64,000 bases of DNA from contig OZ024740.1 in NCBI GenBank assembly GCA_964016885.1, positions 313,224,001-313,288,000 on the forward strand, written 5' to 3'. Both the position numbers and the translations under genes were made by a program. Below, piece after piece: positions 4,386 through 63,297 of the stretch; the stretch's first letter is position 1, and the number at the start of each line of letters is the position of its first letter. Under the pieces are notes generated by a model that saw only the letters and a list, made by a program, of their open reading frames with translations, searched no databases and had not been told where the DNA came from. Origin of the DNA: Eledone cirrhosa. Lineage: Eukaryota.

Positions 4386-4809
4386 CATCTGTTATGTCCT
4401 TCTGAATTTTGAATATGATATTTGCCTATAATATTTTGAAATGTTTGTCTGTTTCAAAAGTTAGTATTACTAATATATCAAAATTAAAAATGTTTAAAAA
4501 CTCCATATCAAAAACATACGATAAACAAACTTCAGGTGACCAATGTAATTTACAAAGTTGTAAACATTATGACTAACTGCTTCTTTTGACATATATGCAT
4601 ATTATCTTCTCAATGGTTAATCAAGTGTTTCTACACAGGTCCACTACAACATATTACATAATTAAACTAAAAACAAAACTCAGTAAGGTAGCCTATATTT
4701 GGTTATTTGTTTGGCTAAAATTAACAACCAAAACTCCCTGAAATCACTCCCTATTATCTTACAAAAACCCAACAAAAATACTCATTATACAATATTATCC
4801 TTGATATAT

Positions 4810-5150
4810 TCATCATCATCACCATTTAACATCTATGTTTCAATGTTAGCATGGGTTAGATGAGTTATCCCATTGAGAGACAAGTCAGATCAGATGACCA
4901 TGTCTTGCTCATACAGAACTCATTTTAGCTTGGTTTCTATGGTTTGAGCCCTTCTTATCGCCAACCACATTTATAGTGCGTACTGGGTGCTTTTTGTCAT
5001 GACATTGATATGACCACTTTGCAGTGTGGGCTGGGTGCTTTTTGTCAGGACACCCACACGACAACTTTATAGTGTGGGCCGGGTGCTTTTTGTCATGATA
5101 CCTACATGACTGCTTTACAGTGTGGACAGGGTGCTTTTTATCATGACACA
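4810..5150 (-). mobile_element. SINE/RTE 3'-UTR derivative with about 4 tandem ~40-50-bp subrepeats
   Basis: (CAT)n tail at ~4810 and repeated units ...AGTGTGGGCTGGGTGCTTTTTGTCATGACA..., related to the two subrepeats in the RTE 3' UTR. Confidence 0.65.
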
Positions 5151-5226: not shown

Positions 5227-5340
5227 ATGAAAAGATTCAAGGGGTCGTGAATCTTTTCATGTTACCCACTCTACTACCCCAAGTATCGAGTACTCTAGTG
5301 GGTTATGGTCTACCTGGTTTTTTACCACACCCTTTCTGAT
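5227..5340. mobile_element. Hairpin-plus-tail element, internally deleted copy
   Basis: ATGAAAAGATTCA-N8-TGAATCTTTTCAT followed by tail CCCACTCTACTACCCCAAGTATCGAGTACTC...TTACCACA, homologous to the tails at 11162 and 60691. Confidence 0.75.
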
Positions 5341-5345
5341 ATGTA

Positions 5346-5860
5346 TAGAATAAGAAAATGCGAAGTAGTTTCAGATGTTAAAGTCCTTTATTGATAATGC
5401 TGTGATACATATTACAATGACGACAGTGGCCACAAGATTCTGTGTACCCAGTGCCATGACATCATCAGACAGCTTCTTGCATAATAAGGTTACGTTCCTG
5501 AGGCAATCCAAACAGAAACAACAAGGGAACGGACAAAGCAGGTGTTCTTGAATCCTTGCAAGGGAACGGGCGAAGGATTCAAGAACACGCGCTTTGTCCG
5601 TTCCCTTGTCGTTTCAATTTGGATTGCCTCGGGAACGTAACCTTATTATGCAAGAAGCTGTCTTATGATGTCATGACACTGGGTACACAGAATCTTGTGG
5701 CCACTGTCGTCATTGTAATATGCATCACAGCTTTATCAATAAAGGACTTTAACATCTGAAACTACTTCGCATTTTCTTATTCTAAATATACTCCGTCATT
5801 ACTAAGTAGAAAAAGTATGTTGAGTGCTTGAATTGAATTGCATCAATGTTTACTGTAAGT
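5346..5860. mobile_element. Foldback element: ~212-bp inverted arms, 15-nt spacer, ~75-nt unique tail
   Basis: 5346-5557 is the reverse complement of 5573-5784 with scattered mismatches; unique sequence follows to (TA)n at ~5860. Confidence 0.85.
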
Positions 5861-6523: not shown

Positions 6524-6555
<32 letters not shown>

Positions 6556-6644
6556 ATGTAAAAGGTAAACAGAAAGAACAACACAATCGGTACAGTATAT
6601 GGAAGGAATATATTAGGTTAACGCTTGAAATAGCAGGAAGAGAG

Positions 6645-6680
6645 TCTTAACGTTTCAGATGCTAGTCCTTCATCAGAAGA
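6645..6680 (-). ncRNA. Ultra-minimal hammerhead ribozyme motif (Penelope pLTR-type)
   Basis: Minus strand TCTT-CTGATGA-A-GGA(ctagca)TCT-GAAACGT-T-AAGA. Confidence 0.65.
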
Positions 6681-6834
6681 AAGAATGAGACATAAGATAG
6701 ATTGAAAGGACGGGCAGGTTGGAATTGGAAAAAATGTCTTTAAATAAAAATAACAGGTCCATTCATGTTGACATCTCTTGCAAAACTGTTGGTCCTGGCC
6801 TTTTGTGTATGATTTATTTTTTTGGATGATGGAG

Positions 6835-11132: not shown

Positions 11133-11161
<29 letters not shown>

Positions 11162-11163
<2 letters not shown>

Positions 11164-11357
11164 ACGAAGGAAATGTGGTAAGGAACCAGATGGACCATAA
11201 CGCACCAAAGTACTCAATACTTAGGGTAGTAGAGTGGGTAATAGGAACGAGTAGGACCCCCGACGGCTGAGCTCAAGCCGTTTCGACGGCTAATTCTGGA
11301 CTCCAGAATTAGCCGTCGAAATGGCTTGAGCTCAGCCGTCGGGGTCCTACTCGTTCC

Positions 11358-24988: not shown

Positions 24989-27900
24989 TAACTTTGATAG
25001 GTTTCGGCCAGTATTGGCCCAGGCCATGTCTAACTTAATAGCACCACCTGGCGAAGTCTTACAAATCACTGTTTGGGCACCATGGCCCACTCGAGCAGAG
25101 AGTTATTGTTTACCGAGGCATATCCGGGTGTAGGAGGCTTATCCGGGATTTCTTGAAGGAATTTATCCAAAGACTTCTTGAACTTGATGGGGTCTGTCTC
25201 TGCTTTGATGTGTTTTGGTGTAATGTTAAAGAGTGCAGAGCCAATTGAGGTGAAATAATTGTGCTGTATTGTTGTTATGTGATGCAAGTGGGATTTTTGT
25301 CGTGGGCGGATATCACGGGGCCCAAGCCTTGGGTGTACACTAAAGGTGATGCCAACATCATTTGGGCTAAGCTGATGGAATATTTTCCACATCATACAGA
25401 TAATGTAGCGCTCACGGCGACGTTGAAGAGAATAAAGTTTGAGCTTTTCTTATCGACCCCAATAGTCGAGGCCTGTCGTGCCATCTATCTTTTTTGTAAT
25501 TGACCTTTGAGGTACTTCAACTTTCATGATACTTTGTTTCGTGTGGGGTGACCACAGTGAACAACAGTATTCAAGGTGGGGTCGGGCAAAAGTGGAGAAG
25601 AGAAGGACAACAGTGTGGATATCTCTCGACTGGAAAGTTCTGAGAATCCAGGAACACATTCTGTGGGCCATATCAACTTTGCTGTTTATATGAGTGGCCC
25701 AGCTTATATTGTTGTCCACAATTACTCCCAGGTCTCTGATGTTATTGGAAGCCACTAGAGTTTCACCCGAAGGAAGAGAGTATGGTAGTTTTAGGGTATC
25801 CTTTTTTCCAAAGTGGATTAGTTCAAATTTATCCTCATTCAACAGCATATTATTCATCTCTGCCCATTGAATAACAGCCAGTAGGTCTGACTGAAGGCAA
25901 GTCCGGTCAACCACCTCATTGATGACCCTTTGGAGCTTGGAATCATCTGCGAAGATTCTGATGTTGCTGTGTTTGATGATGTCAGTAATGTCATTAATGT
26001 AGATGATGAAAAGAAGTGGGCCAAACACAGTACCTTGTGGGACGCCACTGCTGACTTTGGCAGGGCTTGATTTTACTCCTTCGACTACAAAATGCTGGGT
26101 TCTGTCTGTCAGGAAACATTTGATCCACTGTAGTAACCTTCCAGAGACACCAACATTGGATAGTTTTTTCAGTAGAATCTTATGATCAACCCTGTCGAAG
26201 GCCCTGCTGAAATCAAGGTAGATGACATCAGTGTTGGAGCCCTCTCCCAAGGCTCTCAAAACATTGTTAAAGTGATGCAGGAGCTGCATTAGGCAGTCCC
26301 TTCCATTACGAAATCCATGTTGGTTGGAGTTCAGCAGGCCGTTGCTTTCAAGAAAGTGGGTTATTCGTGATCTCACCACCCTCTCAAATACCTTGATAAT
26401 ATGAAAGGTGAGTGAGATCGGATGGTAGTTCACTGCAAGGGACTTATTTCCCTTTTTGAAGACTGGGACAACGGACTGGGACAGAAAGTTTTCAGGAATA
26501 TAGCCAGTGTCCAGTGAGTTCCTCCACAGATTAGCAAGAGGAGTTGCAAGTTGGTGTCGACACACCTTCAGGACACAAGCAGGGAATCTGTCGGGGCCTA
26601 AATTGTGAATTGTGTTTAATTTCGTTTATTGCCGCTAAGACATCAGGGGCGCCAAACGTTATGTCTGATATAGTGTGTTGGGGGTTAATATCACTGATAC
26701 GGCCCAGATCGGCCATATCAGGGTTGCTGAAAACAGAGCAGTATTGTTTCAGCAGTATCTCGCCCATGGTTTTGGCATTGTCCTGGAGTGTGCCATTTTC
26801 ATCAACTAGGGGGCCAACAGTGGAGACGGTGACCATGTGTTTTTTAGCGAATGAGAAGAACACTTTGGGGTTGAGTTTGATTTTCTCAATGGCCCACCTC
26901 TCTTCAGCTATTCTCTGGTTATTGATGATGGTCATCATGCATTGCTGGAGGTTATATTTTTTTGACTCAAGCAGGGTGATAGCCATTGAATGTGTGTGTT
27001 GCTGTTGGCAGTATTTTAGTGTGTTAATTTTTTTGTTTGTTCTTTTTATTTTTCTGATAATTGTTTTTCTATTTTGGGAGATACTGCACTTGGTTTTGTT
27101 CACAGGTTTTGGTGGGGTGTGTTTTGTACATATATTTGTGACAGTGTCTACAAAGATCTGCCAAGATGTTTTGATGTTGGTGGAAGTGTGTGCGTGTGTA
27201 AAAGACCTATCGACATGTGATAGTTCGTTCATAATTGCATCCCAGTTGGCATTGTGGAGATCCATGTTATCAAATGGGTGGGCTGGAAAGAAGACCCTGG
27301 GATTAGCTTTCAGCTGGTGGAATCTTAGGTTACAAAGAACCATGTCATGGTCTGAGAGAAGGGTTTTTTCCACTCTAATATTATGTATAGTGTTAGTGTG
27401 GTTACTAAACACTAGATCCAGAATGTTCTTCTGATGCCTCGTTGATGCAAGGACAAGTGGGGACAAGAAAAACTCATTCATGAAGTCAAGAAGTGACTCG
27501 ACAGCCTCTTTGCCAGTGGTTGAGGCTGTGGAGACTGGTTTCAAACTACATGTAAACCAATCAACACAGGGTAGATTAAAGTCTCCCATCAAAAGTATGT
27601 TGCTAGAATGGCACTATTTAATAAAGCATTTAATACTGTTGCGGCATTCTTTGAAACAGATTATGGGTGTTTGTGGTGGCCTATAGAGCCCAACTAATGT
27701 CAGATCATTGGCTTTATTGTGCACAGTGACTGATTCACAGTATCCATTAGAGAATGTTGTGTTGCCATCTGCCGTAAAGGAAACATGCAGGAAAATGGCA
27801 GTTCCACCCTTCCTTCTGCCAACACGATCCGCACGGATGGTTGTGAAATTTCTCGTTCTTACTTCGGGCCTTCAAGTGGGAGTTGTCAAGGTGGGTCTCA

Positions 27901-28525: not shown

Positions 28526-28591
28526 ATAACAGAGGAGTTGTGGTAAGGAACCAGATGGACCATAATGCACCAGAGAACTCAATACTTAGGG
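28526..28591. mobile_element. Hairpin-plus-tail element, tail only
   Basis: GTGGTAAGGAACCAGATGGACCATAATGCACCAGAGAACTCAATACTTAGGGT matches 11175-11227. Confidence 0.8.
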
Positions 28592-28640
28592 TGTATATAT
28601 ATATATATATATATATATGTACATATATATATATATATAA

Positions 28641-30133: not shown

Positions 30134-33100
30134 CATCATCATCATCATCAACGTTTAACGTCCGTGTTCCACGCTTGCATGGGTTTGGACGGGGGTAGTC
30201 CCACTTGAGGCAAGAGTGATTGTCTTGCTCGCATAGGACTGTCTGGCAGGTTTTCTACAGTTGGATGCCCTTCCTAACACCAACCACATTTACAGTGTGG
30301 GTCTGGGAGGTTTTTACCGTGTTGCCTACACGGCCACATTACAGCGTGGACTGTGTTTTTTTGTCGTGACACCTACACGATCTCATTTATTTCGGCCTGG
30401 ATGGTGTGGCACCAACATAACTTTACATAGAACGGGGTGGTGTGGATGGGGTGGAGGTGGTGGTGGTGGGACGGGGGGGTATTTTGTTAGAGATGCCTAC
30501 TGGCTGTAGTAGGTTTTACTATGTATTTAGGTAAGGCGGGTCTTCTCTGTTACTGAGTACCGCCAAAGGTCTCGGTCCAGTGACATTGTCTTGGAGAGGT
30601 GTAAGTGTGTGAGGTCGGAGTTTATCAGCTCGTCCCAGGTTTTTCTAGGTCTACCTATTCCGTGGCTACCGTCTATCTTTATTGCCCTGCACTTTGTTAT
30701 ACAGCTATCGACTTTCATGCGCATCACGTGTCCATACCAACGTAGCCTTCTCTCGAGTAAACAGCATCTGATCCCTCTTATTTCTAATTTTTTCCTTAGT
30801 TCGTTTATGCTTTGCTGTTCATGTATATTACTGTTACACATCCAGCGGAGCATGCAAGCTTCGTTCCTCTCTAGTCTGCGTATATCCTCTGCACACAATG
30901 CCCAGGTCTCACTGCCATGCAACTTTGCTGTTCGTATGCAGGCATCGTACAGCCTGCCTTTCATTTTTAGGGAGAACCCTTTAGCAGCTAATAGTGGTAT
31001 AAGCTCTCTGAACTTTTTCCAACCAGTTCTGACTCTAGCTACTGTACTTTCAGAACACCCTCCCCCACTGCTGATTTTATCACCCAGGTAACGGAAGCTG
31101 TCCACTATTTCTATAGAACCCTCTGCGCAATTGAAAGAGCTAGTATTTTGTGGGCACTTGCTGCTACTTATTGCACCAGAGCACTGGCCACATGTAAAAT
31201 CTATGTTCTTAGTTAGCTTACCTGTGATCCCACTACATCTTTTATGCACCCATACTTTGCATTTAGGACATAAAATGGAGTTTCTACCTACGCCTTTCCT
31301 ACACACCGAGCACGACCATTTCCCAGAAGGGACCGCCGCCTTATTTTCTTTCCTACAAACTAGAACTTTAGTCTTAGCCAGGTTAATTTTAAGTCCTTTT
31401 GATTCTAGGCCGTGCTTCCATGTTTGGAATTTCTTCTCTAGCTCGGCCATTGATTCCGCTATGAGTGTCAGGTCTGCGTATAGGAGTTCCCATGGGCAGC
31501 CGGTCTTGAACTCCTCTGTTATAGCCTGAAGGGCAATAATAAATAGTAGGGGGCTGAGAACAGAGCCCTGATGGACGCCAACTTTTACGCTAAACTCTTC
31601 ACTATATTCGTTGTTAATTCTAACCTTGCTGACTGTTTCTTTATACATGGCTTGTATAGCTCTCACAAGCCATTCGTCAACGCCTAGTTTTCTAAGAGCC
31701 CACCAGATAATGGAGCGGGGGACTCTGTCGAAGGCTTTCTCCAAGTCGACAAAAGCTAAGTAGAGGGGTTTACCTTTAGCTAGGTACTTCTCCTGTAGTT
31801 GTCGTACAATGAAAAGAGCGTCTGTGGTACTTTTGCCTGACACAAACCCGAACTGCATTTCATCTAGGTCAATTCTCTCTCTGATTAGTTGTGCTATTAC
31901 TTTTTCCGTGACCTTCATGACCTGGTCGATTAATTTAATGCCTCTATAGTTACTCCTATCTAGGGCGTCTCCTTTACCCTTATAACAGTTAACGATGATG
32001 CTGCTATGCCAGTCCTTCGGAACAACCCCATTCTGTACGACTTGGTTAACTATGCGGGTGACCATGGTGTGTCCCACCGTGCCAGATGCCTTCAGCATCT
32101 CAGCAACTATTTCCGAAGGCCCAGCCGCCTTACCCGTCTTCATATCCTTGATTGCCTTACTTATTATACTCCCCTCGACTAACACTGCTGGTCCCTCTAT
32201 TGGGTCGATATGGGGGAGACTGTCTTTCTCCCATTTATTCTCCTCATTTAGTAGCCTTTCATAGTGACACTTCCAAGCTACCTTCTTATCAGCGTCGGTG
32301 ATGGCAAGTATGCCATCATCGTTAAGTACACACTTCTCCCCGACAATATCACGGTTTTCCTTGACGCATTGCCTAGCAATCCTGAACACCTCACGTTTTT
32401 GGTCCTCGCGTTGTAGAACATGCTTGAACTTTCTTTCCTCAGCTTCCCTTCTTGCTAAGTACACTTGTCTCCTAGCTTCCCTCCTGGCCACTTGATAGTC
32501 TTCTCTACTTCCCCCATCCCGCCATACTTTCCAAGCCTGCTTTTTGGCCTTAATTGACCCCTCCACCTTACTGTTCCACCACCATGTTACTCTCCTCCTG
32601 CCTACAGGCCTGCTGCAGCCACAGACTTCGTCTGTCGCCATCAGCAGGTTTGCTTTCAGAAATTCCCACTGTCCCTCTATATTGTCCAACTCTAAATGTT
32701 CTTCCTTACTGTCGAAAGCATCAAGTAATATGCTTTGAAATTTATTTCTGGCTGTGGGGTCCTTTAGCTTCCATATTTTTCTCCTGAGGATAGTCCTCTT
32801 CTGCTGTCGAGTACGTCTCGTCCTGACTGTGAGGTCGCTAATTATCAGTCTATGTTGGGAGGTGCATTCTTTATGGGGGAGGGATTTAGTGTTTACAACA
32901 GACACCCTGTCACGTCTTCTGGTAAGGATATAATCTACCTGGCTTGTGTGTTCCCCGGATCTATAGGTGATCAGGTGATTGTCACGTTTTTTGAAGTTAG
33001 TGTTACAGATAGTTAGGTTATTTGCATCACAGAATTCCAGGATTCTGGAGCCTTCCTCATTTCTAGTACCAAACCCATAGCCTCCATGGATTTCGTCGTA

Positions 33101-33694
33101 GCCGTCACAATGTTGTCCAACGTGACCGTTTAGGTCGCCTGCAATAATTATATAGTCACTGTCTGTTATTTGGGAGGTAGTGAGCATCAGTGTCTCATAG
33201 AATCTGTCTTTTATAGTGCTGGGCAGTCCGGATTGGGGTGCGTACGCGGATATTACTGTCACCGTAGTTCTATTAAGGACAAGTCTTATTTTAATTATTC
33301 TGTCGTTCACTCTATTTACGTCTATTATCTTATCTGCCCACTTTTCTGCTACCATGATTCCTACTCCACCCAGCCCATTGTCGTTTCCCACACAGAAACG
33401 CTTATAGCATCGTTTTCTACCCACAATGTATCTAGCAGACCCACCCCTCCACCTGGTCTCTTGAATACAACAAACATTGACCTCCTTACGTTCAAGCATT
33501 TTTACAACCTCGTTAGAGCGACCCTTTAAGGTGCCTACATTCAAGGTACCAAATCTGAAGTTTTGGATTGCGTTTGGGGGGTTGGAAAGGTGGGAAGCGG
33601 GGGGAGATGGGGTTATGTTAGCCGTCCGCGGCCGAAACAAAGAGGCATGCTCGCATTTTCGTCCTCGAGGTGTGATTGTCTTTAACTTTGGCAT
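30134..33694 (-). mobile_element. RTE-PHD LINE subfamily A with a nearly complete ORF
   Basis: Uninterrupted EN-RT-PHD reading frame, 3' UTR and tail; the element begins at the MPK codon also seen at 17785 in subfamily B. Confidence 0.95.
30527..33694 (-). CDS. RTE ORF (about 1055 aa): APE endonuclease, reverse transcriptase and PHD-type finger; catalytic YADD reduced to YAD
   Basis: Real portion of the 1466-aa track ORF; its N-terminal ~411 codons lie upstream of the element and are mostly microsatellite read-through. Confidence 0.85.
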
Positions 33695-35123: not shown

Positions 35124-37387
35124 TAAATATCCAATGATATAGAAGATATATATATATAGATATAGAAGATATATATATATAGATATAGATGATATATATA
35201 TATATATATATATATATTTAGATATAAATGAGATATATATATATATAGATATAGATGTTATATATATATATATAGATATAGATGATATATATATATAGAT
35301 ATAGATGATATATATATATAGATATAGATGATATATATATATAGATATAGATGATATATATATATAGATATAGATGATATATATATAGATATAGATGATA
35401 TATATATATAGATATAGATGATATATATATATAGATATAGATGATATATATATAGATATAGATGATATATATATATATAGATAATATATATATATATATA
35501 GATAATATATATATATATATAGATAATATATATATATATATATAGATAATATATATATATATATATAGATAATATATATATATATATAGATAATATATAT
35601 ATATATATAGATAATATATATATATATATAGATAATATATATATATATATAGATAATATATATATATATATATAGATAATATATATATATATATATAGAT
35701 AATATATATATATATATATAGATAATATATATATATATATAGATAATATATATATATATATATAGATAATATATATATATATATATAGATAATATATATA
35801 TATATATAGATAATATATATATATATATATAGATAATATATATATATATATATAGATAATATATATATATATATAGATAATATATATATATATATATAGA
35901 TAATATATATATATATATATAGATAATATATATATATATATAGATAATATATATATATATATATAGATAATATATATATATATAGATAATATATATATAT
36001 ATATATATAGATAATATATATATATATATAGATATAGATGATATATATATATATATATAGATATAGATGATATATATATATATATATAGATATAGATGAT
36101 ATATATATATATATAGATATAGATGATATATATATATATAGATATAGATGATATATATATATATAGATATAGATGATATATATATATATATATATAGATG
36201 ATATATGTATATAAAAATATATATATATATATAGATATATATATATATATAGATAGATGATATATATATATATATAGATGATATATATATATATATATAG
36301 ATAGATGATATATATATATATATATAGATAGATGATATATATATATATATATAGATAGATGATATATATATATATATAGATGATATATATATATATATAG
36401 ATATATATATATATAAAGATATATATATATAGATATATATATATATATAGATGATATATATATATAGATAGATATATATATCATCTATCTCTCTCTCTAT
36501 ATATATCATCTATCTATATATATATATATATCATCTATCTCTCTCTATATATATATCATCTATCTCTCTCTATATATATATCATCTATCTCTCTCTCTAT
36601 ATATATATATATATCATCTATCTCTATATATATATCATCTATCTATATATATATATCATCTATCTATATATATATATATATATCATCTATCTCTCTCTCT
36701 CTATATATATATATATCATCCATCTCTCTCTCTCTCTATATATATATATATCATCCATCTCTCTCTCTATATATATATATCATCTATCTCTCTCTCTCTA
36801 TATATATATATCATCTATCTCTTTCTCTCTCTCTATATATATATCATCTATCTCCCTCTCTCTCTCTATATATATATATATCATCTATCTCTCTCTCTAT
36901 ATATATATCATCTATCTCTCTCTCTATATATATATCATCTATCTCTCTCTCTATATATATATCATCTATCTCTCTCTATATATATATATCATCTATCTCT
37001 CTCTCTATATATATATCATCTATCTCTCTCTCTATATATATATCATCTATCTCTCTCTCTATATATATATCATCTATCTCTCTCTCTCTATATATATATC
37101 ATCTATCTCTCTCTCTCTATATATATATCATCTATCTCTCTCTCTCTATATATATCATCTATCTCTCTCTCTATATATATATATCATCTATCTCTCTGTC
37201 TATATATATATCATCTATCTCTCTGTCTATATATATATCATCTATCTCTGTCTATATATATATCATCTATCTCTCTGTCTATATATATATCATCTATCTC
37301 TCTCTCTATATATATATCATCTATCTCTCTCTCTCTATATATATATATCATCTATCTCTCTCTCTCTCTATATATATATATCATCTA

Positions 37388-37420
<33 letters not shown>

Positions 37421-37486
37421 CATCTATCTCTCTCTCTATATATATATCATCTATCTATCTCTATATATATATATATCATCTATCTA

Positions 37487-37591
<105 letters not shown>

Positions 37592-38741
37592 TCTATCTCT
37601 CTCTATATATATATATATCATCTATCTCTCTCTCTCTATATATATATCATCTATCTCTCTCTCTCTATATATATATCATCTATCTCTCTCTCTATATATA
37701 TATATCATCTATCTCTCTCTCTATATATATATATATCATCTATCTCTCTCTCTCTATATATATATATCATCTATCTCTCTCTCTATATATATATATATCA
37801 TCTATCTCTCTCTCTCTATATATATATATCATCTATCTCTCTCTCTATATATATATATCATCTATCTCTCTCTCTCTATATATATATCATCTATCTCTCT
37901 CTCTATATATATATCATCTATCTCTCTCTATATATATATCATCCATCTCTCTCTCTCTCTATATATATATCATCTATCACTCTCTATATATATATCACCT
38001 ATCTCTCTCTATATATATATATCATCTCTCTCTCTATATATATATATCATCTATCTCTCTCTCTATATATATCATCTATCTCTCTCTCTATATATATCAT
38101 CTATCTATATATATATATATGTATATCATCTATCTATATATATATATCATCTATCTATCTATATATATATATATATATATATATATCATCTATCTCTCTC
38201 TCTATATATATATCATCTATCCCTCTCTATATATATATCATCTATCTCTCTCTCTATATATATCATCTATCTCTCTCTCTATATATATCATCTATCTCTC
38301 TCTATATATATATCATCTATCTCTCTATATATATATATCATCTATCTCTCTATATATATATATCATCTATCTCTCTCTATATATATATATATATCATCTA
38401 TCTCTCTATATATATATCATCTATCTCTCTATATATATATCATCTTCTCTCTCTATATATATATCATCTCTCTCTCTATATATATATATCATCTATCTCT
38501 CTCTATATATATATCATCTATCTCTCTCTATATATATATCATCTATCTCTCTCTATATATATATCATCTATCTCTCTCTCTATATATATATCATCTATCT
38601 CTCTATATATATATATCATCTATCTCTCTCTATATATATATCATCTATCTCTCTCTATATATATATCATCTATCTCTCTCTCTCTTATATATATATATAT
38701 ATCATCTATCTCTCTCTCTCTATATATATATATATCATCTA

Positions 38742-38772
<31 letters not shown>

Positions 38773-38840
38773 CATCTATCTCTATATATATATATATATA
38801 TCATCTATCTATATATATATATATATATATATATCATCTA

Positions 38841-38877
<37 letters not shown>

Positions 38878-38881
38878 TCTA

Positions 38882-38918
<37 letters not shown>

Positions 38919-39186
38919 CATCTATCTCTCTCTCTCTCTATATATATATATATCATCTATCTCTCTCTCTATATATATATATCATCTATCTCTCTCTCTA
39001 TATATATATATCATCTATCTGTCTCTATATATATATATATATCATCTATCTATCTCTATATATATATATATCATCTATCTCTCTCTCTCTATATATATAT
39101 ATATAGATCATCTATCTATCTCTCTCTCTCTCTATATATATATCATCTATCTATCTCTCTCTCTATATATATATATATATCATCTA

Positions 39187-39219
<33 letters not shown>

Positions 39220-39268
39220 CATCTATCTATCTCTCTCTCTCTATATATATATATATATCATCTATCTA

Positions 39269-39301
<33 letters not shown>

Positions 39302-39953
39302 CATCTATCTCTCTTTCTATATATATATATATCATCTATCTCTCTCTCTCTATATATATATCATCTATCTCTCTATATATATATCATCTATCTCTATATA
39401 TATATATCATCTATCTATCTCTATATATATATCATCTATCTATCTCTATATATATATATCATCTATCTCTCTCTATATATATATATCATCTATCTCTCTC
39501 TATATATATATATCATCTATCTCTCTCTCTCTATATATATATATCATCTACTCTCTCTCTCTATATATATATATCATCTATCACTATATATATATATATC
39601 ATCTATCACTATATATATATATATCATCTATCACTATATATATATATATCATCTATCACTATATATATATATATCATCTATCACTATATATATATATATC
39701 ATCTATCACTATATATATATATATCTATCACTATATATATATATATCTATCACTATATATATATATATCATCTATCACTATATATATATATATCATCTAT
39801 CACTATATATATATATATCATCTATCACTATATATATATATATCATCTATCACTATATATATATATATCATCTATCACTATATATATATATCATCTATCA
39901 CTATATATATATATCATCTATCTCTATATATATATATATATATATATCATCTA

Positions 39954-39984
<31 letters not shown>

Positions 39985-40203
39985 CATCTATCTATCTCTC
40001 TATATATATATATCATCTATCTATCTCTCTCTCTATATATATATATCATCTATCTCTATATATATCATCTATCTCTCTCTCTATATATATATATCATCTC
40101 TCTCTATATATATATATCATCTCTCTCTATATATATATATCATCTCTCTCTATATATATATATCATCTATCTCTATATATATATATATCATCTATATCAT
40201 CTA

Positions 40204-40234
<31 letters not shown>

Positions 40235-41190
40235 CATCTATCTCTATATATATATATATATCATCTATCTCTCTCTCTATATATATATATATCATCTCTC
40301 TCTCTATATATATATCATCTCTCTCTCTATATATATATCATCTCTCTCTCTATATATATATATCATCTCTCTCTCTATATATATATATCATCTCTCTCTC
40401 TCTATATATATATCATCTCTCTCTCTATATATATATATCATCTCCCTCTCTATATATATATATCATCTCTCTCTCTATATATATATATATCATCCATCTC
40501 TCTCTCTCTCTATATATATATATATCATCCATCTCTCTCTCTATATATATATATCATCTATCTCTCTCTCTCTATATATATATATCATCTATCTCTTTCT
40601 CTCTCTCTATATATATATCATCTATCTCCCTCTCTCTCTCTATATATATATATATCATCTATCTCTCTCTCTATATATATATCATCTATCTCTCTCTCTA
40701 TATATATATCATCTATCTCTCTCTCTATATATATATCATCTATCTCTCTCTATATATATATATCATCTATCTCTCTCTCTATATATATATCATCTATCTC
40801 TCTCTCTATATATATATCATCTATCTCTCTCTCTATATATATATCATCTATCTCTCTCTCTCTATATATATATCATCTATCTCTCTCTCTCTATATATAT
40901 ATCATCTATCTCTCTCTCTCTATATATATCATCTATCTCTCTCTCTATATATATATATCATCTATCTCTCTGTCTATATATATATCATCTATCTCTCTGT
41001 CTATATATATATCATCTATCTCTGTCTATATATATATCATCTATCTCTCTGTCTATATAATATATCATCTATCTCTCTGTCTATATATATATCATCTATC
41101 TCATCTCTCTATATATATATCATCTATCTCTCTCTCTCTATATATATATATCATCTATCTCTCTCTCTCTCTATATATATATATCATCTA

Positions 41191-41223
<33 letters not shown>

Positions 41224-41289
41224 CATCTATCTCTCTCTCTATATATATATCATCTATCTATCTCTATATATATATATATCATCTATCTA

Positions 41290-41379
<90 letters not shown>

Positions 41380-42650
41380 TCTATCTCTCTCTATATATAT
41401 ATATATCATCTATCTCTCTCTCTCTATATATATATCATCTATCTCTCTCTCTCTATATATATATCATCTATCTCTCTCTCTATATATATATATCATCTAT
41501 CTCTCTCTCTATATATATATATATCATCTATCTCTCTCTCTCTATATATATATCATCTATCTCTCTCTCTATATATATATATATCATCTATCTCTCTCTC
41601 TCTATATATATATATCATCTTATCTCTCTCTCTCTATATATATATATCATCTATCTCTCTCTCTCTATATATATATCATCTATCTCTCTCTCTATATATA
41701 TATCATCTATCTCTCTCTATATATATCATCCATCTCTCTCTCTCTCTATATATATATCATCTATCACTCTCTATATATATATCACCTATCTCTCTCTATA
41801 TATATATATCATCTCTCTCTCTATATATATATATCATCTATCTCTCTCTCTATATATATCATCTATCTCTCTCTCTATATATATCATCTATCTATATATA
41901 TATATATGTATATCATCTATCTATATATATATATCATCTATCTATCTATATATATATATATATATATATATCATCTATCTCTCTCTCTATATATATATCA
42001 TCTATCCCTCTCTATATATATATCATCTATCTCTCTCTCTATATATATCATCTATCTCTCTCTCTATATATATCATCTATCTCTCTCTATATATATATCA
42101 TCTATCTCTCTATATATATATATCATCTATCTCTCTATATATATATATCATCTATCTCTCTATATATATATAAATCATCTATCTCTCTATATATATATAT
42201 CATCTTATCTCTCTCTCCTATATATATATCATCTCTCTCTCTATATATATATCATCTATCTCTCTCTATATATATATCATTCTATCTCTCTCTATATATA
42301 TATCATCTATCTCTCTCATATATATATATCATCTATCTCTCTCTATATATATATCATCTATCTCTCTCTATATATATATCATCTATCTCTCTCTCTCTCT
42401 ATATATATATATATCATCTATCTCTCTCTCTCTATATATATATATATCATCTATCTCTCTCTATATCTATATATATATATATATCATCTATCTCTATATA
42501 TATATATATATATCATCTATCTCTCTCTATATATATATATATATATCATCTATCTTATATATATATATATATCTATCTATCTATATATATATATAATATA
42601 TATCATCTATCTATATATATATATATATATATATATAAATATATCATCTA

Positions 42651-42701
<51 letters not shown>

Positions 42702-42934
42702 CATCTATCTCTCTCTCTCTCTATATATATATATATCATCTATCTCTCTCTCTATATATATATATCATCTATCTCTCTCTCTATATATATATATCATCTA
42801 TCTGTCTCTATATATATATATATATCATCTATCTATCTCTATATATATATATCATCTATCTCTCTCTCTCTATATATATATATATAGATCATCTATCTAT
42901 CTCTCTCTCTCTCTATATATATATCATCTATCTA

Positions 42935-42965
<31 letters not shown>

Positions 42966-42971
42966 CATCTA

Positions 42972-43004
<33 letters not shown>

Positions 43005-43053
43005 CATCTATCTATCTCTCTCTCTCTATATATATATATATATCATCTATCTA

Positions 43054-43086
<33 letters not shown>

Positions 43087-43984
43087 CATCTATCTCTCTT
43101 TCTATATATATATATATCATCTATCTCTCTCTCTCTATATATATATCATCTATCTCTCTATATATATATCATCTATCTCTATATATATATATCATCTATC
43201 TATCTCTATATATATATCATCTATCTATCTCTATATATTATATCATCTATCTCTCTCTATATATATATATCATCTATCTCTCTCTATATATATATATCAT
43301 CTATCTCTCTCTCTCTATATATATATATCATCTATCTCTCTCTATATATATATCATCTATCACTATATATATATATATCAATCTATCACTATATATATAT
43401 ATATCATCTATCACTATATATATATATATCATCTATCACTATATATATATATATCATCTATCACTATATATATATATATCATCTATCACTATATATATAT
43501 ATATCTATCACTATATATATATATAATCTATCACTATATATATATATATCATCTATCACTATATATATATATATCATCTATCACTATATATATATATATC
43601 ATCTATCACTATATATATATATATCATCTATCACTATATATATATAATCATCTATCACTATATATATATATCATCTATCACTATATATATATATCATCTA
43701 TCTCTATATATATATATATATATATATCATCTATCTCTCTCTCTCTCGTATATATATATATATCATCTATCTATCTCTCTATATATATATATCATCTATC
43801 TATCTCTCTCTCTATATATATATATCATCTATCTCTATATATAATCATCTATCTCTCTCTCTATATATATATATCATCTCTCTCTATATATATATATCAT
43901 CTCTCTCTATATATATATATCATCTCTCTCTATATATATATATCATCCTATCTCTATATATATATATATCATCTATATCATCTA

Positions 43985-44015
<31 letters not shown>

Positions 44016-44536
44016 CATCTATCTCTATATATATATATATATCATCTATCTCTCTCTCTATATATATATATCATCTCTCTCTCTATATATATATCATCTC
44101 TCTCTCTATATATATATCATCTCTCTCTCTATATATATATATCATCTCTCTCTCTATATATATATATCATCTCTCTCTCTCTATATATATATCATCTCTC
44201 TCTCTATATATATATATCATCTCCCTCTCTATATATATATATCATCTCTCTCTCTATATATATATATCATCTATCTCTATTATATTATATCATCTATCTC
44301 TATATATATATATCATCTATCTCTATATATATATCATCTATCTCTCTATATATATATATATCATCTATCTCTCTCTATATATATATATATCATCTATCTC
44401 TCTCTATATATATATATATCATCTATCTCTCTCTCTATATATATATATCATCTATCTCTCTCTATATATAGAGAGAGAGAGATAGATGATATATATATAG
44501 ATAGATAGATAGATGATATATATATAGAGATATATG

Positions 44537-44564
<28 letters not shown>

Positions 44565-44567
<3 letters not shown>

Positions 44568-45152
44568 AAGAAAAAGAGATGAAATCGAAAATGCAACTGG
44601 AGTCTTATTTTTTTCAAAAATATATATATTTATTTGGTTCCTTTACCGGTTTCGCAGTTCTTTAATGAAAATTTGTTCACGTGACAGCCATAATTTCATT
44701 TATTACCAACCAAAAAAAAGCCTTCGTGAGCCTCCTTTTTTCAAGTAAAAAGAAATTCAAACACTCATATATGAAAAAACAACCTGTGACAACCCCTCTT
44801 ATTTGAAGAACTATTGTAACGCGAACTGGCGCGAAATTTATTATAATTATTGACAAACCAATCAAATTACTTCTCGAAAAACCTGGCATTTTCGAGCCAC
44901 TTTTTCCATATAAAACAAGTAACATTCAGAGACCAACCAGATGTGAGAAAAACCACAGACCCTCCATCTCAACTCACCTTTTGAAAAGTAGAAGAACTGC
45001 GAAACCGGTAAAGGAACCAAATAAATATATATATTTTTTTTTAAAATAAGACTCCAGTTGCATTTTCGATTTCATCTCTTTTTCTTTATACTTTCACTCG
45101 TGTAGGACACCTCGGTTATTTTTCATTTTGTAAAAAAAAACTCACTTTCTAA
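44565..45152 (+). mobile_element. Penelope-type pseudo-LTR with an inverted partial 5' copy
   Basis: 44565-44661 is the reverse complement of ~44993-45090; contains a hammerhead motif; second direct copy at 50696-50907. Confidence 0.75.
44977..45014 (+). ncRNA. Minimal hammerhead ribozyme motif, U3-A8 core variant
   Basis: CCTT-TTGAAAA-GTAG(aagaa)CTGC-GAA-A-CCGG-T-A-AAGG. Confidence 0.7.
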
Positions 45153-45315
45153 TATATATATATATATAGAGATAGATGATATATATATAGATAGATGATA
45201 TATATATATAGATAGATGATATATATATATATATATAGATAGATGATATATATATATAGATAGATGATATATATATATAGATGATATATATATAGAGAGA
45301 TAGATGATATATATA

Positions 45316-50695: not shown

Positions 50696-50900
50696 ATGTG
50701 AGAAAAACCACAGACCCTCCATCTCAACTCACCTTTTGAAAAGCAGAAGAACTGCGAAACCGGTAAAGGAACCAAATAAATATATATATTTTTTAAAAAA
50801 ATAAGACTCCAGTTGCATTTTCGATTTCATCTCTTTTTCTTTATACTTTCACTCGTGTAGGACACCTCGGTTATTTTTCATTTTGTAAAAAAAACCTCAC

Positions 50901-50907
<7 letters not shown>
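50696..50907 (+). mobile_element. Second copy of the hammerhead-bearing pLTR (hammerhead at 50732-50769)
   Basis: Near-identical to 44941-45152; stem II here is the perfect GCAG/CTGC. Confidence 0.8.
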
Positions 50908-50938
<31 letters not shown>

Positions 50939-50939
<1 letters not shown>

Positions 50940-51140
50940 AGAAATGACTTCTACAGGACCAGTACTGTTTCATTTGCATGAAATCATCAGGAATATGTCT
51001 TGATTATTTCATACGAATGAAACAGTTCTAGTCATGTAGAAGTTATTTCTATATCAAATAAACATGCTTCTTCTCTACTAATGTATTGAGTACCTCATTT
51101 AACTAGGTTTATCATTTGATCCCCTTTAGAAAACTATCCT
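50939..51140. mobile_element. Distant hairpin-plus-tail element (54-bp arms)
   Basis: Arms 50939-50992 and 50998-51051; tail motif CTCTACTA-AT-GTATTGAGTAC at 51073-51093. Confidence 0.7.
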
Positions 51141-51379
51141 GAATTATGCACACATACATCCCACCATATATATATATATATATATATTTATTAAAATAAC
51201 AGATTAAAGTTTGTGTGTGTGTGTGTGTGGTTTGTAAAAAGAAAAAAAACGTACCAGACTTGAAAAACTGTGGTGCTATCTGTACGATATTAACTAAATC
51301 CCTTCAAGATGGTGGCACGGCATGGCCACACACACACACACACATCATCGTTTTTATGTCCGTTTTTCTATGCTTGCAT

Positions 51380-53549: not shown

Positions 53550-53558
<9 letters not shown>

Positions 53559-53830
53559 TAAAAAAATAATGAATAAAACAATGAAACAGTTCCTTATATT
53601 AAACAAAAAAAGTTCATGAACTTTTTTTGTTTAATATAAGGAACTGTTTAATATAAGGAACTGTTTCATTGTTTTATTCATTATTTTTTAAATATTTTAT
53701 CTTGACTCTGTATTCCGTTTATCTTTCACCGAAAGTGATTTTTCATTGCATCTCTTCTTTCCATGATATCCGGATTACATTGAGTTCTTCATACGGATTG
53801 GACACTACCGTAAACTCTTGGTAGATTTAT
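53550..53830. repeat. AT-rich spacerless palindrome (67-bp arm) plus ~130-nt unique tail between TA tracts
   Basis: Centre GTTCA|TGAAC at 53616/53617; the right arm carries a ~17-bp duplication. Confidence 0.75.
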
Positions 53831-53831
53831 C

Positions 53832-53889
<58 letters not shown>

Positions 53890-55479: not shown

Positions 55480-55812
55480 ATCATCATCACTGTTTTACGT
55501 CCGTTCTTCCATGCTAGCATGGGTTAGACGGTGATTCTGGCTTGATTTCTACAGCTGGATGCCCTTCCTAACACCAACCTCATTTACAGTGAGTGCAGGG
55601 TGCTTTTTTGCCGTGGCACCTCCACGGCCACTTTGCAGTGGAATGATAGGGACCCCAGTCCCTATCATCTCATTTCTACAGCTGAGTAAACTGGAGCAAT
55701 GTGAAATAAAGTGTCTTGCTCAAGGAAACAACACATCACCCAGTCTGAGAATTGAACTCACAACCTTTTGATTGCAAGGCCAATGCTCTCACCACTAAGC
55801 CATGTGCCTCCA
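55480..55812 (-). mobile_element. Full-length tRNA-derived SINE with an RTE-derived tail
   Basis: Colinear with 50066-50412. Confidence 0.85.
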
Positions 55813-60572: not shown

Positions 60573-60577
<5 letters not shown>

Positions 60578-60770
60578 AAAAAGTATGACCCCAACGGCAG
60601 AGCTCAAGCCGTTTCGATGGCTATTTCTGGACTCAGAAATAGCCGTCGAAACGGCTTGAGCTCTGCCGTCGGGGTCATACTTTTTCCTATTTCCCACTCT
60701 ACTACCTTAAGTATTGAGTACTCTGGTGCGTTATGGTCCATCTGGTTCCTTACCACAATCCCTTTGTTAT
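60573..60770. mobile_element. Hairpin-plus-tail element, full copy in the opposite orientation to 11162
   Basis: Palindrome 60573-60690, tail 60691-60770, flanked by (TA)n. Confidence 0.85.
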
Positions 60771-60849
60771 ATATATATACTGTATATATATATATATTAT
60801 GATAATACAAAAGACGAAAATGGTTAATTATATTTCATATATATATATA

Positions 60850-62600: not shown

Positions 62601-62655
62601 ATGAAAAGATTCAGGACCCCGACAGCTGAGCTCTGGCTGTTTCAACAGCTAGATT
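62601..62655. mobile_element. Single arm of the hairpin-plus-tail family (5227 subtype)
   Basis: ATGAAAAGATTCAGGACCCCGACAGCTGAGCTC..GCTGTTTCAACAGCTA links the 5227 terminus to the 11241 arm body. Confidence 0.65.
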
Positions 62656-63297
62656 CAAACTCTTATATACATATACAAGTTTATATAACTGTAAATATGT
62701 GTAGGGCTTCTGTCTGTTTGCTTCTCTTTCTCTGACACACACAGACGTATACATACACACATTCCCTCACATATGCAAGTATACACACACTCAGTCATAC
62801 AGATATGCACACTCACATGCACACACACACACACTCTCTCTTTCATACACATACATGCATTCTCACACACACACACACACATATGCACTCTCTTTCACAC
62901 ACACATACATGCACTCTCCCTTTCTTCCATAGACGAACTCTCTCTTTCACACACATATACATGCAGTCTCTCTTTCAAACACACGCACACACATGAACTC
63001 TCTCTTTCTCTCTCTTTGATCTGTCCTGCTGTAATACACACTTTTATAAGCCCAATACCTGTTAGATTCACCAGTAATTGCTACTTTGTACCATTCACAC
63101 ATTTCTTCTGCTATTTTGCAATGTTTTATCTGACCTTTTTCATTTGTGAAGCAGACATGAAATTGTTATCAAAAGTTTTTATGTAGTTTGTGACATTAAA
63201 CAATGTCAGACAGGGTGTGGGGTGGGTTAAATGAACAAAGAAGAACTGGGGTATAGGGATAAATTAAAGATAAATGTGAATATCTCTTAACCATAGT

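Follow-up and report, generated by a model that had tools for sequence, protein, structure and literature searches.

At position 50939 of the stretch of 64,000 nucleotides analyzed here (the window), a palindrome abuts a TA tract and is followed by a tail whose short motif recurs behind palindromes of unrelated sequence. What kind of element leaves such a locus behind, and is its hairpin a structure that mobility requires? A sequence-only reading had proposed a structure-defined superfamily, in which the tail would hold the recognition or nicking site of one shared mobilizing enzyme. We arrive at a different answer: the locus is probably what remains of a strongly 5′-truncated Hydra-clade Penelope-like element (PLE), whose enzyme is predicted to begin copying just upstream of a conserved stem-loop. 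Its identity as a Hydra-clade PLE end is the part of this reading that we hold with high confidence; that the stem acts in RNA form is a mechanism toward which we lean with some reserve.

As the element class is already known, the locus taken alone is ordinary. What it leads to is a twin stem-loop, which bears on the choice of internal start sites by PLE enzymes and on why the tail is optional; to our knowledge, in vitro work covers a single PLE. A stem that is conserved and repeated, with constant spacing to either end, gives a minimal cis-signal open to mutational test. It also helps to classify the small TA-flanked palindromes without ORFs that occur in invertebrate genomes.

A palindrome in a TA tract, with a tail on one arm

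The window consists of microsatellite-rich DNA of animal type. At 50939, two 54-bp arms with 8 mismatches enclose a 5-nt loop (Table 1), and the single-stranded DNA fold has a z-score of -8.7, with equal stability reached in 0 of 200 shuffles. The insertion lies in (TA)n: the left arm is abutted by the TA tract, and on the right the element passes into a decayed simple repeat and then TA. The tail is restricted to one arm and measures about 85-90 nt; read depth steps at 51106 and 51146, and loose read ends lie in TA-rich sequence at 51054-51060. The stem-loop S1 begins about 20-22 nt past the end of the arm, or about 12 nt if the arm extends to 51059/60.

Arms of 54 bp behind a TA tract, followed by CTCTACTA-N2-GTATTGAGTAC, had been reported here from the letters alone, and we recover them at 50939-51051. 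The pattern CTCTACTA-N(0-10)-GTATTGAGTAC occurs three times in the window (at 51073 with N2, at 60697 with N6, and at 11210-11234 on the minus strand with N6), versus a chance mean of 0.00 in 100 shuffles; a fourth copy with one mismatch is found at 5269, and a 5′-cut copy at 28526-28592 on the minus strand. Two further claims, that this motif is common to otherwise unrelated hairpins and that the 50939 arms are dissimilar to those at 11241 and 60573, are upheld by alignment scores: the score between the 50939 tail and the second-family tail was reached by 2 of 5000 shuffles, and that between the arms by 2270 of 5000, which amounts to no sequence likeness. A more distal match, drawn between CATTTGATCCCCTT and CATCTGGTTCCTT, falls to chance level by local score (2362 of 5000). 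The unlike arms of the 50939 copy and the second family are nevertheless the same kind of part, namely hammerhead pieces.

The left flank (50696-50910) repeats 44941-45157 at 97.7% identity, and a short piece lies inverted at 44564-44662. Possibly the flank is a PLE end as well, on a tentative hammerhead parse with two core changes; with a descriptor loosened to this extent, 1-6 matches per window are background, which makes all such parses tentative. Were the flank a PLE end, the 50939 copy would lie in a TA tract that follows an older insertion. The paralogous flank at 44941-45157 offers no clean empty site for the 50939 insertion.

Table 1. Features of the 50939 locus and of related elements, in window coordinates
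Feature	Position	Strand	Detail or basis
(TA)n tract, putative target site at the left junction	50908-50936	.	sequence
Left arm: inverted tail-less 5′-truncated element end (inverted pLTR piece)	50939-50992	-	
Type I hammerhead, intact core	50949-50993	-	descriptor match
Right arm: sense copy, hammerhead decayed	50998-51051	+	two changes in the core (51000-51006); cut at 51038
Tail of the 50939 copy	51052-51145	+	right end approximate, merging into decayed simple repeat
S1 stem-loop (the previously reported motif)	51072-51093	+	CTC/GAG, TT bulge, TAC/GTA, 4-nt loop
Second family, 57-bp arms, tail to TA tract	60573-60772	+	S1 at 60696-60721
Second family, further copy	11159-11360	-	S1 at 11210-11235
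Second-family relative, 13-bp arms	5229-5342	+	S1 at 5268-5293
Second-family tail alone, cut within S1, without hairpin	28526-28592	-	
Second-family tail-less arm alone, ending at TA	62601-62656	-	
Third family: 212-bp arms, TA tract	5346-5860	+	S-like stem 5790-5827, weak (E 3)
Fourth family: TA, palindrome, S-like stem, TA	53550-53840	+	long-loop stem 53705-53787
5′-truncated tail-less Hydra-clade PLE, of another family than 50939	21222-22845	+	

A Hydra-clade-type hammerhead in the arms

The hammerhead in the left arm comprises a 3-bp stem I (TTC/GAA), CTGATGA-T, stem II, T-GAA and a stem III of ACAG/CTGT, with a GUA cut predicted after the A at 50952 (minus strand). In the window, the descriptor matches at 50990 on the minus strand and at one other site (6676); on shuffles of the region, it returned any match in 19 of 20,000 and a stem III of at least 4 in 3 of 20,000. 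Stem I has only 3 bp and stem II 2 bp, and the hammerhead is not the MFE fold. Rfam reports no hammerhead here, and its matches to miRNA hairpins are all sub-threshold, on which ground we rejected a miRNA reading of the hairpin. The core, with an extra T on either side of stem II, has the form CTGANGA-T...T-GAA, which by our count 14 of the 26 Hydra-clade rows share in File S2 of Craig 2021 (PMC8557442, in the part of the file consulted). On sequence grounds, the 50939 arms are head-to-head copies of a Hydra-clade-type hammerhead for which cleavage is predicted.

Relatives in the reads repair the decayed right-arm copy. Four runs, two giving 6097 and 4390 contigs and two giving 5005 and 5184 reads, were mapped onto the locus; in the mapped relatives, 51005 is G in about 97% of the depth, 51034 is C in about 90%, and 51000 is C in about half of the contig depth, and the hammerhead core is thereby restored. 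Variation among copies is greatest in the stem II loop, and the depth peak is sharp and lies on the ribozyme. Strand-switch joints occur at several places, i.e., the fold-back point varies between copies, and many reads continue upstream of 51001 into other sequence. A tandem hammerhead unit of 77 nt appears in some reads (51041 joined to 51001 by way of 36 intervening letters; seen in 56 reads of X5 and 20 of X6), and its letters yield a 6-bp stem I. This unit is possibly a very short retrozyme array of the 50939 family.

The match at 6676 is a minimal type I hammerhead (6540-6700, minus strand; stem III AC/GT); a TA tract follows after about 110 nt, and a PLE from a different clade probably ends here. 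For the 50939 locus itself, we rejected a Naiad PLE, a type with an N-terminal EN that lacks a canonical hammerhead, as a three-stem hammerhead is present; motif searches of the consulted part of the Craig 2021 supplement, with Naiad consensi, gave no tail match.

Hydra-clade ORFs and the stem-loop behind the hammerhead

The window holds a Hydra-clade element in its own right. Members of this clade encode an RT with a C-terminal GIY-YIG EN. A short-motif scan found an EN remnant at 21510, and the frame 21225-21845 contains a CxCx5C linker and a GIY-YIG-type EN, with one stop; a hammerhead with one core change (22775-22820) is followed by a TA tract, without a tail. The 3′ UTR of about 950 nt includes a 120-nt direct repeat (22423-22541 and 22562-22682). 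Pfam misses the EN remnant and was unresponsive to the Hydra-clade proteins tried, so that Pfam blanks carry little information here. The frame has 119 homologues, and in the 59 with at least 620 residues we find DKT/S in 59/59, CxCx5C in 53/59 and RWK in 35/59; RWK, DKT and CxCx5C are published Hydra-clade marks (Craig 2021, PMC8557442, sections consulted). Aligning 25 of these 59 long homologues yielded 18 loci (L019-L036) of animal DNA within bacterial genome bins. The presence of animal retrotransposon DNA with TA tracts in such bins reflects host contamination, one bin accounting for 7 of the 18 loci.

Nucleotide likeness between the 50939 end and these loci is at chance level, and what ties the 50939 copy to Hydra-clade ORFs is the shared hammerhead form and the stem. 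Its membership of the clade is incomplete to the extent that an ORF-bearing member of its own family was not found, pattern scans of metagenome and viral contigs being nil or at chance. Hammerhead-core patterns matched four viral sequences and one MAG, all lacking stem III, a longer pattern matched none, and the viral contigs contained no Hydra-type ORF. The motif scan of metagenome contigs returned 13 matches that we take as chance, since 0/13 lay near a hairpin (score at most 7), a TA tract or a hammerhead core.

The tail motif is self-pairing: CTC pairs with GAG and, past a 2-nt bulge, TAC with GTA. The Hydra-2_Amil consensus ends in CTCTAC-N10-GTATTGAG behind its hammerhead (Craig 2021, PMC8557442, part consulted), and, by eye, the stem is present in 3 of the 6 consensi in File S7 of the same source, the other 3 ending shortly after the hammerhead. 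Among 25 hammerhead calls in the 18 ORF loci, the next feature is the stem in 11, a TA-type tract in 10 and neither in 4. A stem pattern, written after the stems had been seen, has 16 matches in 70 kb versus a shuffled mean of 0.66. For covariation, we used 12 foreign stems, having dropped four rows (one same-family copy, one overlap and two others). The outer 4 pairs are invariant and the inner 3 pairs contain 16 double changes; the 100% pairing of the set is circular, because the 12 training stems were chosen by their pairing pattern.

A covariance model built on these 12 stems and run over the 64 kb places 60690 (E 0.0006), 11205 (0.0009), 5262 (0.002) and 51073 (0.11) at ranks 1-4. The covariance model R1 also weakly matches the motif sites L001-L013 (best E 0.013); these were chosen for a self-pairing motif, so that the stem is undiagnostic without its hammerhead and TA context. 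The sense strand folds better in 6 of 23 stems, i.e., sense RNA is not favored. In L024, at 4570-4813, a TA tract, a tail-less arm and a tailed arm follow one another in the layout of 50939; the arms are 105 bp long, and this family also terminates an ORF in L030: ORF-bearing and short copies coexist.

Twin stems and the positions of element ends

Eight loci include the ORF start, and in five of the eight both S1 and a second copy of the stem, S2, precede the ATG. In these five foreign Hydra loci, the S1-S2 spacing is 62-68 nt and an in-frame ATG stands 19-33 nt past S2. Of the other three, L031 shows S2 alone, and the 5′ UTR is missing from L020 and L024 because an inverted copy joins there. 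The ends of copies fall close to the stems. Tail-less ends lie 6, 5, 5, 5, 7, 7 and 4 nt before S1, the outliers being two alignments into a TA tract (1 and -1) and the 50939 copy (20); tailed ends stop ahead of S2 by 4, 5 and 8 nt, with one alignment at 2, in two families only. One element, L026, has S1 and S2 in its 5′ UTR, and its 3′ tail ends 4 nt before the expected S2. With tail-less ends near S1 and tailed ends near S2, the tail likely corresponds to the S1-S2 unit.

We think it somewhat probable that the 5′ UTR of Hydra-clade elements carries twin stems, that cDNA starts 4-8 nt upstream of either, that the tail is the S1-to-S2 unit, and that the stem is a portable cis-signal for target-primed integration at TA microsatellites. 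The order of parts in the element RNA, as seen in relatives, is hammerhead, spacer, S1, S2 62-68 nt on, and ATG. The RT/GIY-YIG protein would nick a (TA)n tract and bind a stem. A cDNA start about 4-8 nt upstream of S2 would give a tailed end with S1, and a start upstream of S1 a tail-less one; two short cDNAs, or one folding back, would then be joined head to head, with the palindrome as a by-product. What is observed here is how the parts are ordered, where the junctions fall and that the stem covaries. The twin stem-loop is apparently an undescribed and testable cis-signal: we found no description in the literature, including the consulted part of Cervera 2014 (PMC4209133), with subscription papers and Repbase reports thinly covered, and the sections of Craig 2021 (PMC8557442) that we examined do not describe the stem-loop.

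The hairpin as a likely by-product

An S-like stem stands just behind one arm in 6/6 palindromes of the window, starting 7-9 nt past the arm except at 50939; the background of such stems is about 0.5% of positions, and the loop limit was widened after the one at 53706 had been seen. The long hairpin itself does not look required as a structure: arm lengths are 13, at least 33, at least 43, 54, 57 and 212 bp, the tail at 28585 and the arm at 62601 each stand alone, and the fold-back point varies as well. In the copies at 60573 and 11241, which have a common fold point, mismatches between the two arms of a copy number 2 and 1, respectively, against 5-8 between copies, which fits an inversion created afresh at or close to insertion. 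In this one pair of copies, the central loop bases run opposite ways with respect to the tail.

The arms at 60573 contain the 3′ half of a hammerhead (CGAA, a 5-bp stem III ACGGC/GCCGT, the cut and a stem I strand). Because the arms at 60573, 11241 and 62601 are without the CTGANGA half, we infer the hammerhead reading there. In the 5229 copy, a single case, the sense part begins exactly at the predicted ribozyme cut. A complete hammerhead was not found in 5346-5860, where CTGATGA and a candidate 7-bp stem I are present; this palindrome adjoins the end of the 5229 element. A reading frame spanning arm and tail is not maintained between relatives.

A TA tract, an inverted tail-less copy, a copy and a tail make up a published 5′-truncated PLE insertion, and the big hairpin is accordingly a likely by-product. 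The superfamily defined by structure gives way to this published layout, with hammerhead pieces as arms. As for the tail as an enzyme site, a recognition site is likely; as to the enzyme, each family probably has its own rather than one in common. The mobilizing enzyme is most likely the known RT/GIY-YIG protein of Hydra-clade PLEs.

Known systems and alternative explanations

PLEs leave an inverted 5′-truncated copy and an optional tail of 30-40 bp, with (TA)n targets in the Naiad and Hydra clades (PMC8557442, sections consulted), and the 50939 locus shows this layout, a 5′ truncation with an adjacent inverted 5′-truncated copy. With the Hydra clade of that source, including Hydra-2_Amil, it shares the (TA)n target, the type I hammerhead, the T...TGAA core, stem III ACAG/CTGT, the GUA cut and the inverted 5′-truncated copy. 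It differs in that the 50939 copy has no ORF, its family is unlike the 6 consensi compared, and its outer pair is A-T, not G-C. Both the 50939 tail (about 85-90 nt) and the foreign Hydra unit (62-68 nt) are longer than the published 30-40 bp. In the Poseidon PAc of Anolis (Frangieh 2024, PMC11167929, part consulted), we find the same upstream hammerhead, two internal RT starts defining the tail, and an AT-rich target; in vitro, the PAc protein nicks AT-rich DNA and initiates RT at the two internal positions that delimit the tail, and ribozyme cleavage is dispensable. The PAc tail, however, lies in the ORF and initiation falls within one AC-rich stem-loop, whereas in the Hydra type the tail is 5′ UTR and an end lies upstream of each stem. 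The Penelope of Adineta vaga (Arkhipova 2013, PMC3846280, likewise in part) also has head-to-head inverted pLTRs, junction palindromes and an optional tail, read there as self-priming; its tail is 31 bp and its target duplications are visible, whereas at 50939 they are hidden by the TA tract. Non-LTR retrozymes, according to the sections consulted of a preprint (Li 2026, 10.64898/2026.07.22.740005), are also short non-coding hammerhead units from PLE pLTRs, but are defined by tandem units (two or more); the 50939 locus, which is inverted, falls outside this definition, the tandem unit being present only in the reads of relatives.

Within the same element class, the stem might instead be read as DNA, with the GIY-YIG EN recognizing S1 or S2 in donor or intermediate DNA and cutting at a fixed distance of a few bases upstream, whereby both ends would be set; this is the reading nearest to the nicking site suggested earlier. 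It would agree with the attribution of the tail to EN-mediated resolution (Craig 2021, PMC8557442) and with the need for the tail in EN recognition of plasmid DNA in D. virilis, as cited by Frangieh 2024 (PMC11167929; both sources in part), as well as with folding that has no strand preference and junctions that fall at TA-like bases. Yet lizard PLE ends match RT start sites on an RNA stem-loop (the same part of Frangieh 2024, PMC11167929), and compensatory changes in a short bulged stem fit a single-stranded nucleic acid; we regard the DNA reading as unlikely. We are a little less skeptical, though still doubtful, of a 50939 copy derived from a short non-autonomous, retrozyme-like PLE derivative moved in trans, which would be compatible with the stem model. 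The 77-nt tandem unit with the depth peak on the ribozyme, the fold point common to 60573 and 11241, and the argued derivation of retrozymes from PLE pLTRs (Li 2026 preprint, 10.64898/2026.07.22.740005, part consulted) speak for such an origin, but the locus is inverted rather than tandem, fold points vary among family copies, many reads extend upstream into other sequence, and ORF-bearing and short copies of one family occur together in L024/L030.

The stem behind 6/6 palindromes and the homogenized arms within copies would also suit a new superfamily of hairpin DNA (HUH/rolling-hairpin) in which the palindrome is structurally required. This is largely refuted by the ribozyme motifs in the arms, by arm lengths of 13-212 bp or none, by the tie of the stem to RT and GIY-YIG ORFs in other animals, and by the publication of the inverted-copy layout for PLEs, and we give it almost no credence. 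Helitron/HUH or TIR transposons have terminal inverted repeats or TC...CTRR ends, and a transposase ORF in long members. We rejected them, as the element ends are not inverted repeats, the stem is linked to RT/GIY-YIG ORFs, and no such Pfam family appears among the 43 window ORFs scanned. The truncated Hydra-clade PLE end remains our preferred reading of the locus.

Other repeats in the window

LINE pieces with AP endonuclease and RT are located at 11725-13344, 15005-17699, 23141-24016, 25453-27613 and 30530-33529, and several LINE pieces of the window have a PHD finger behind the RT. A weak tRNA match at 55741-55804 on the minus strand, at the gathering score, is possibly the head of a tRNA-derived repeat. 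From 36000 to 44500, the window is occupied by a long low-complexity satellite block with a GC skew near -1.
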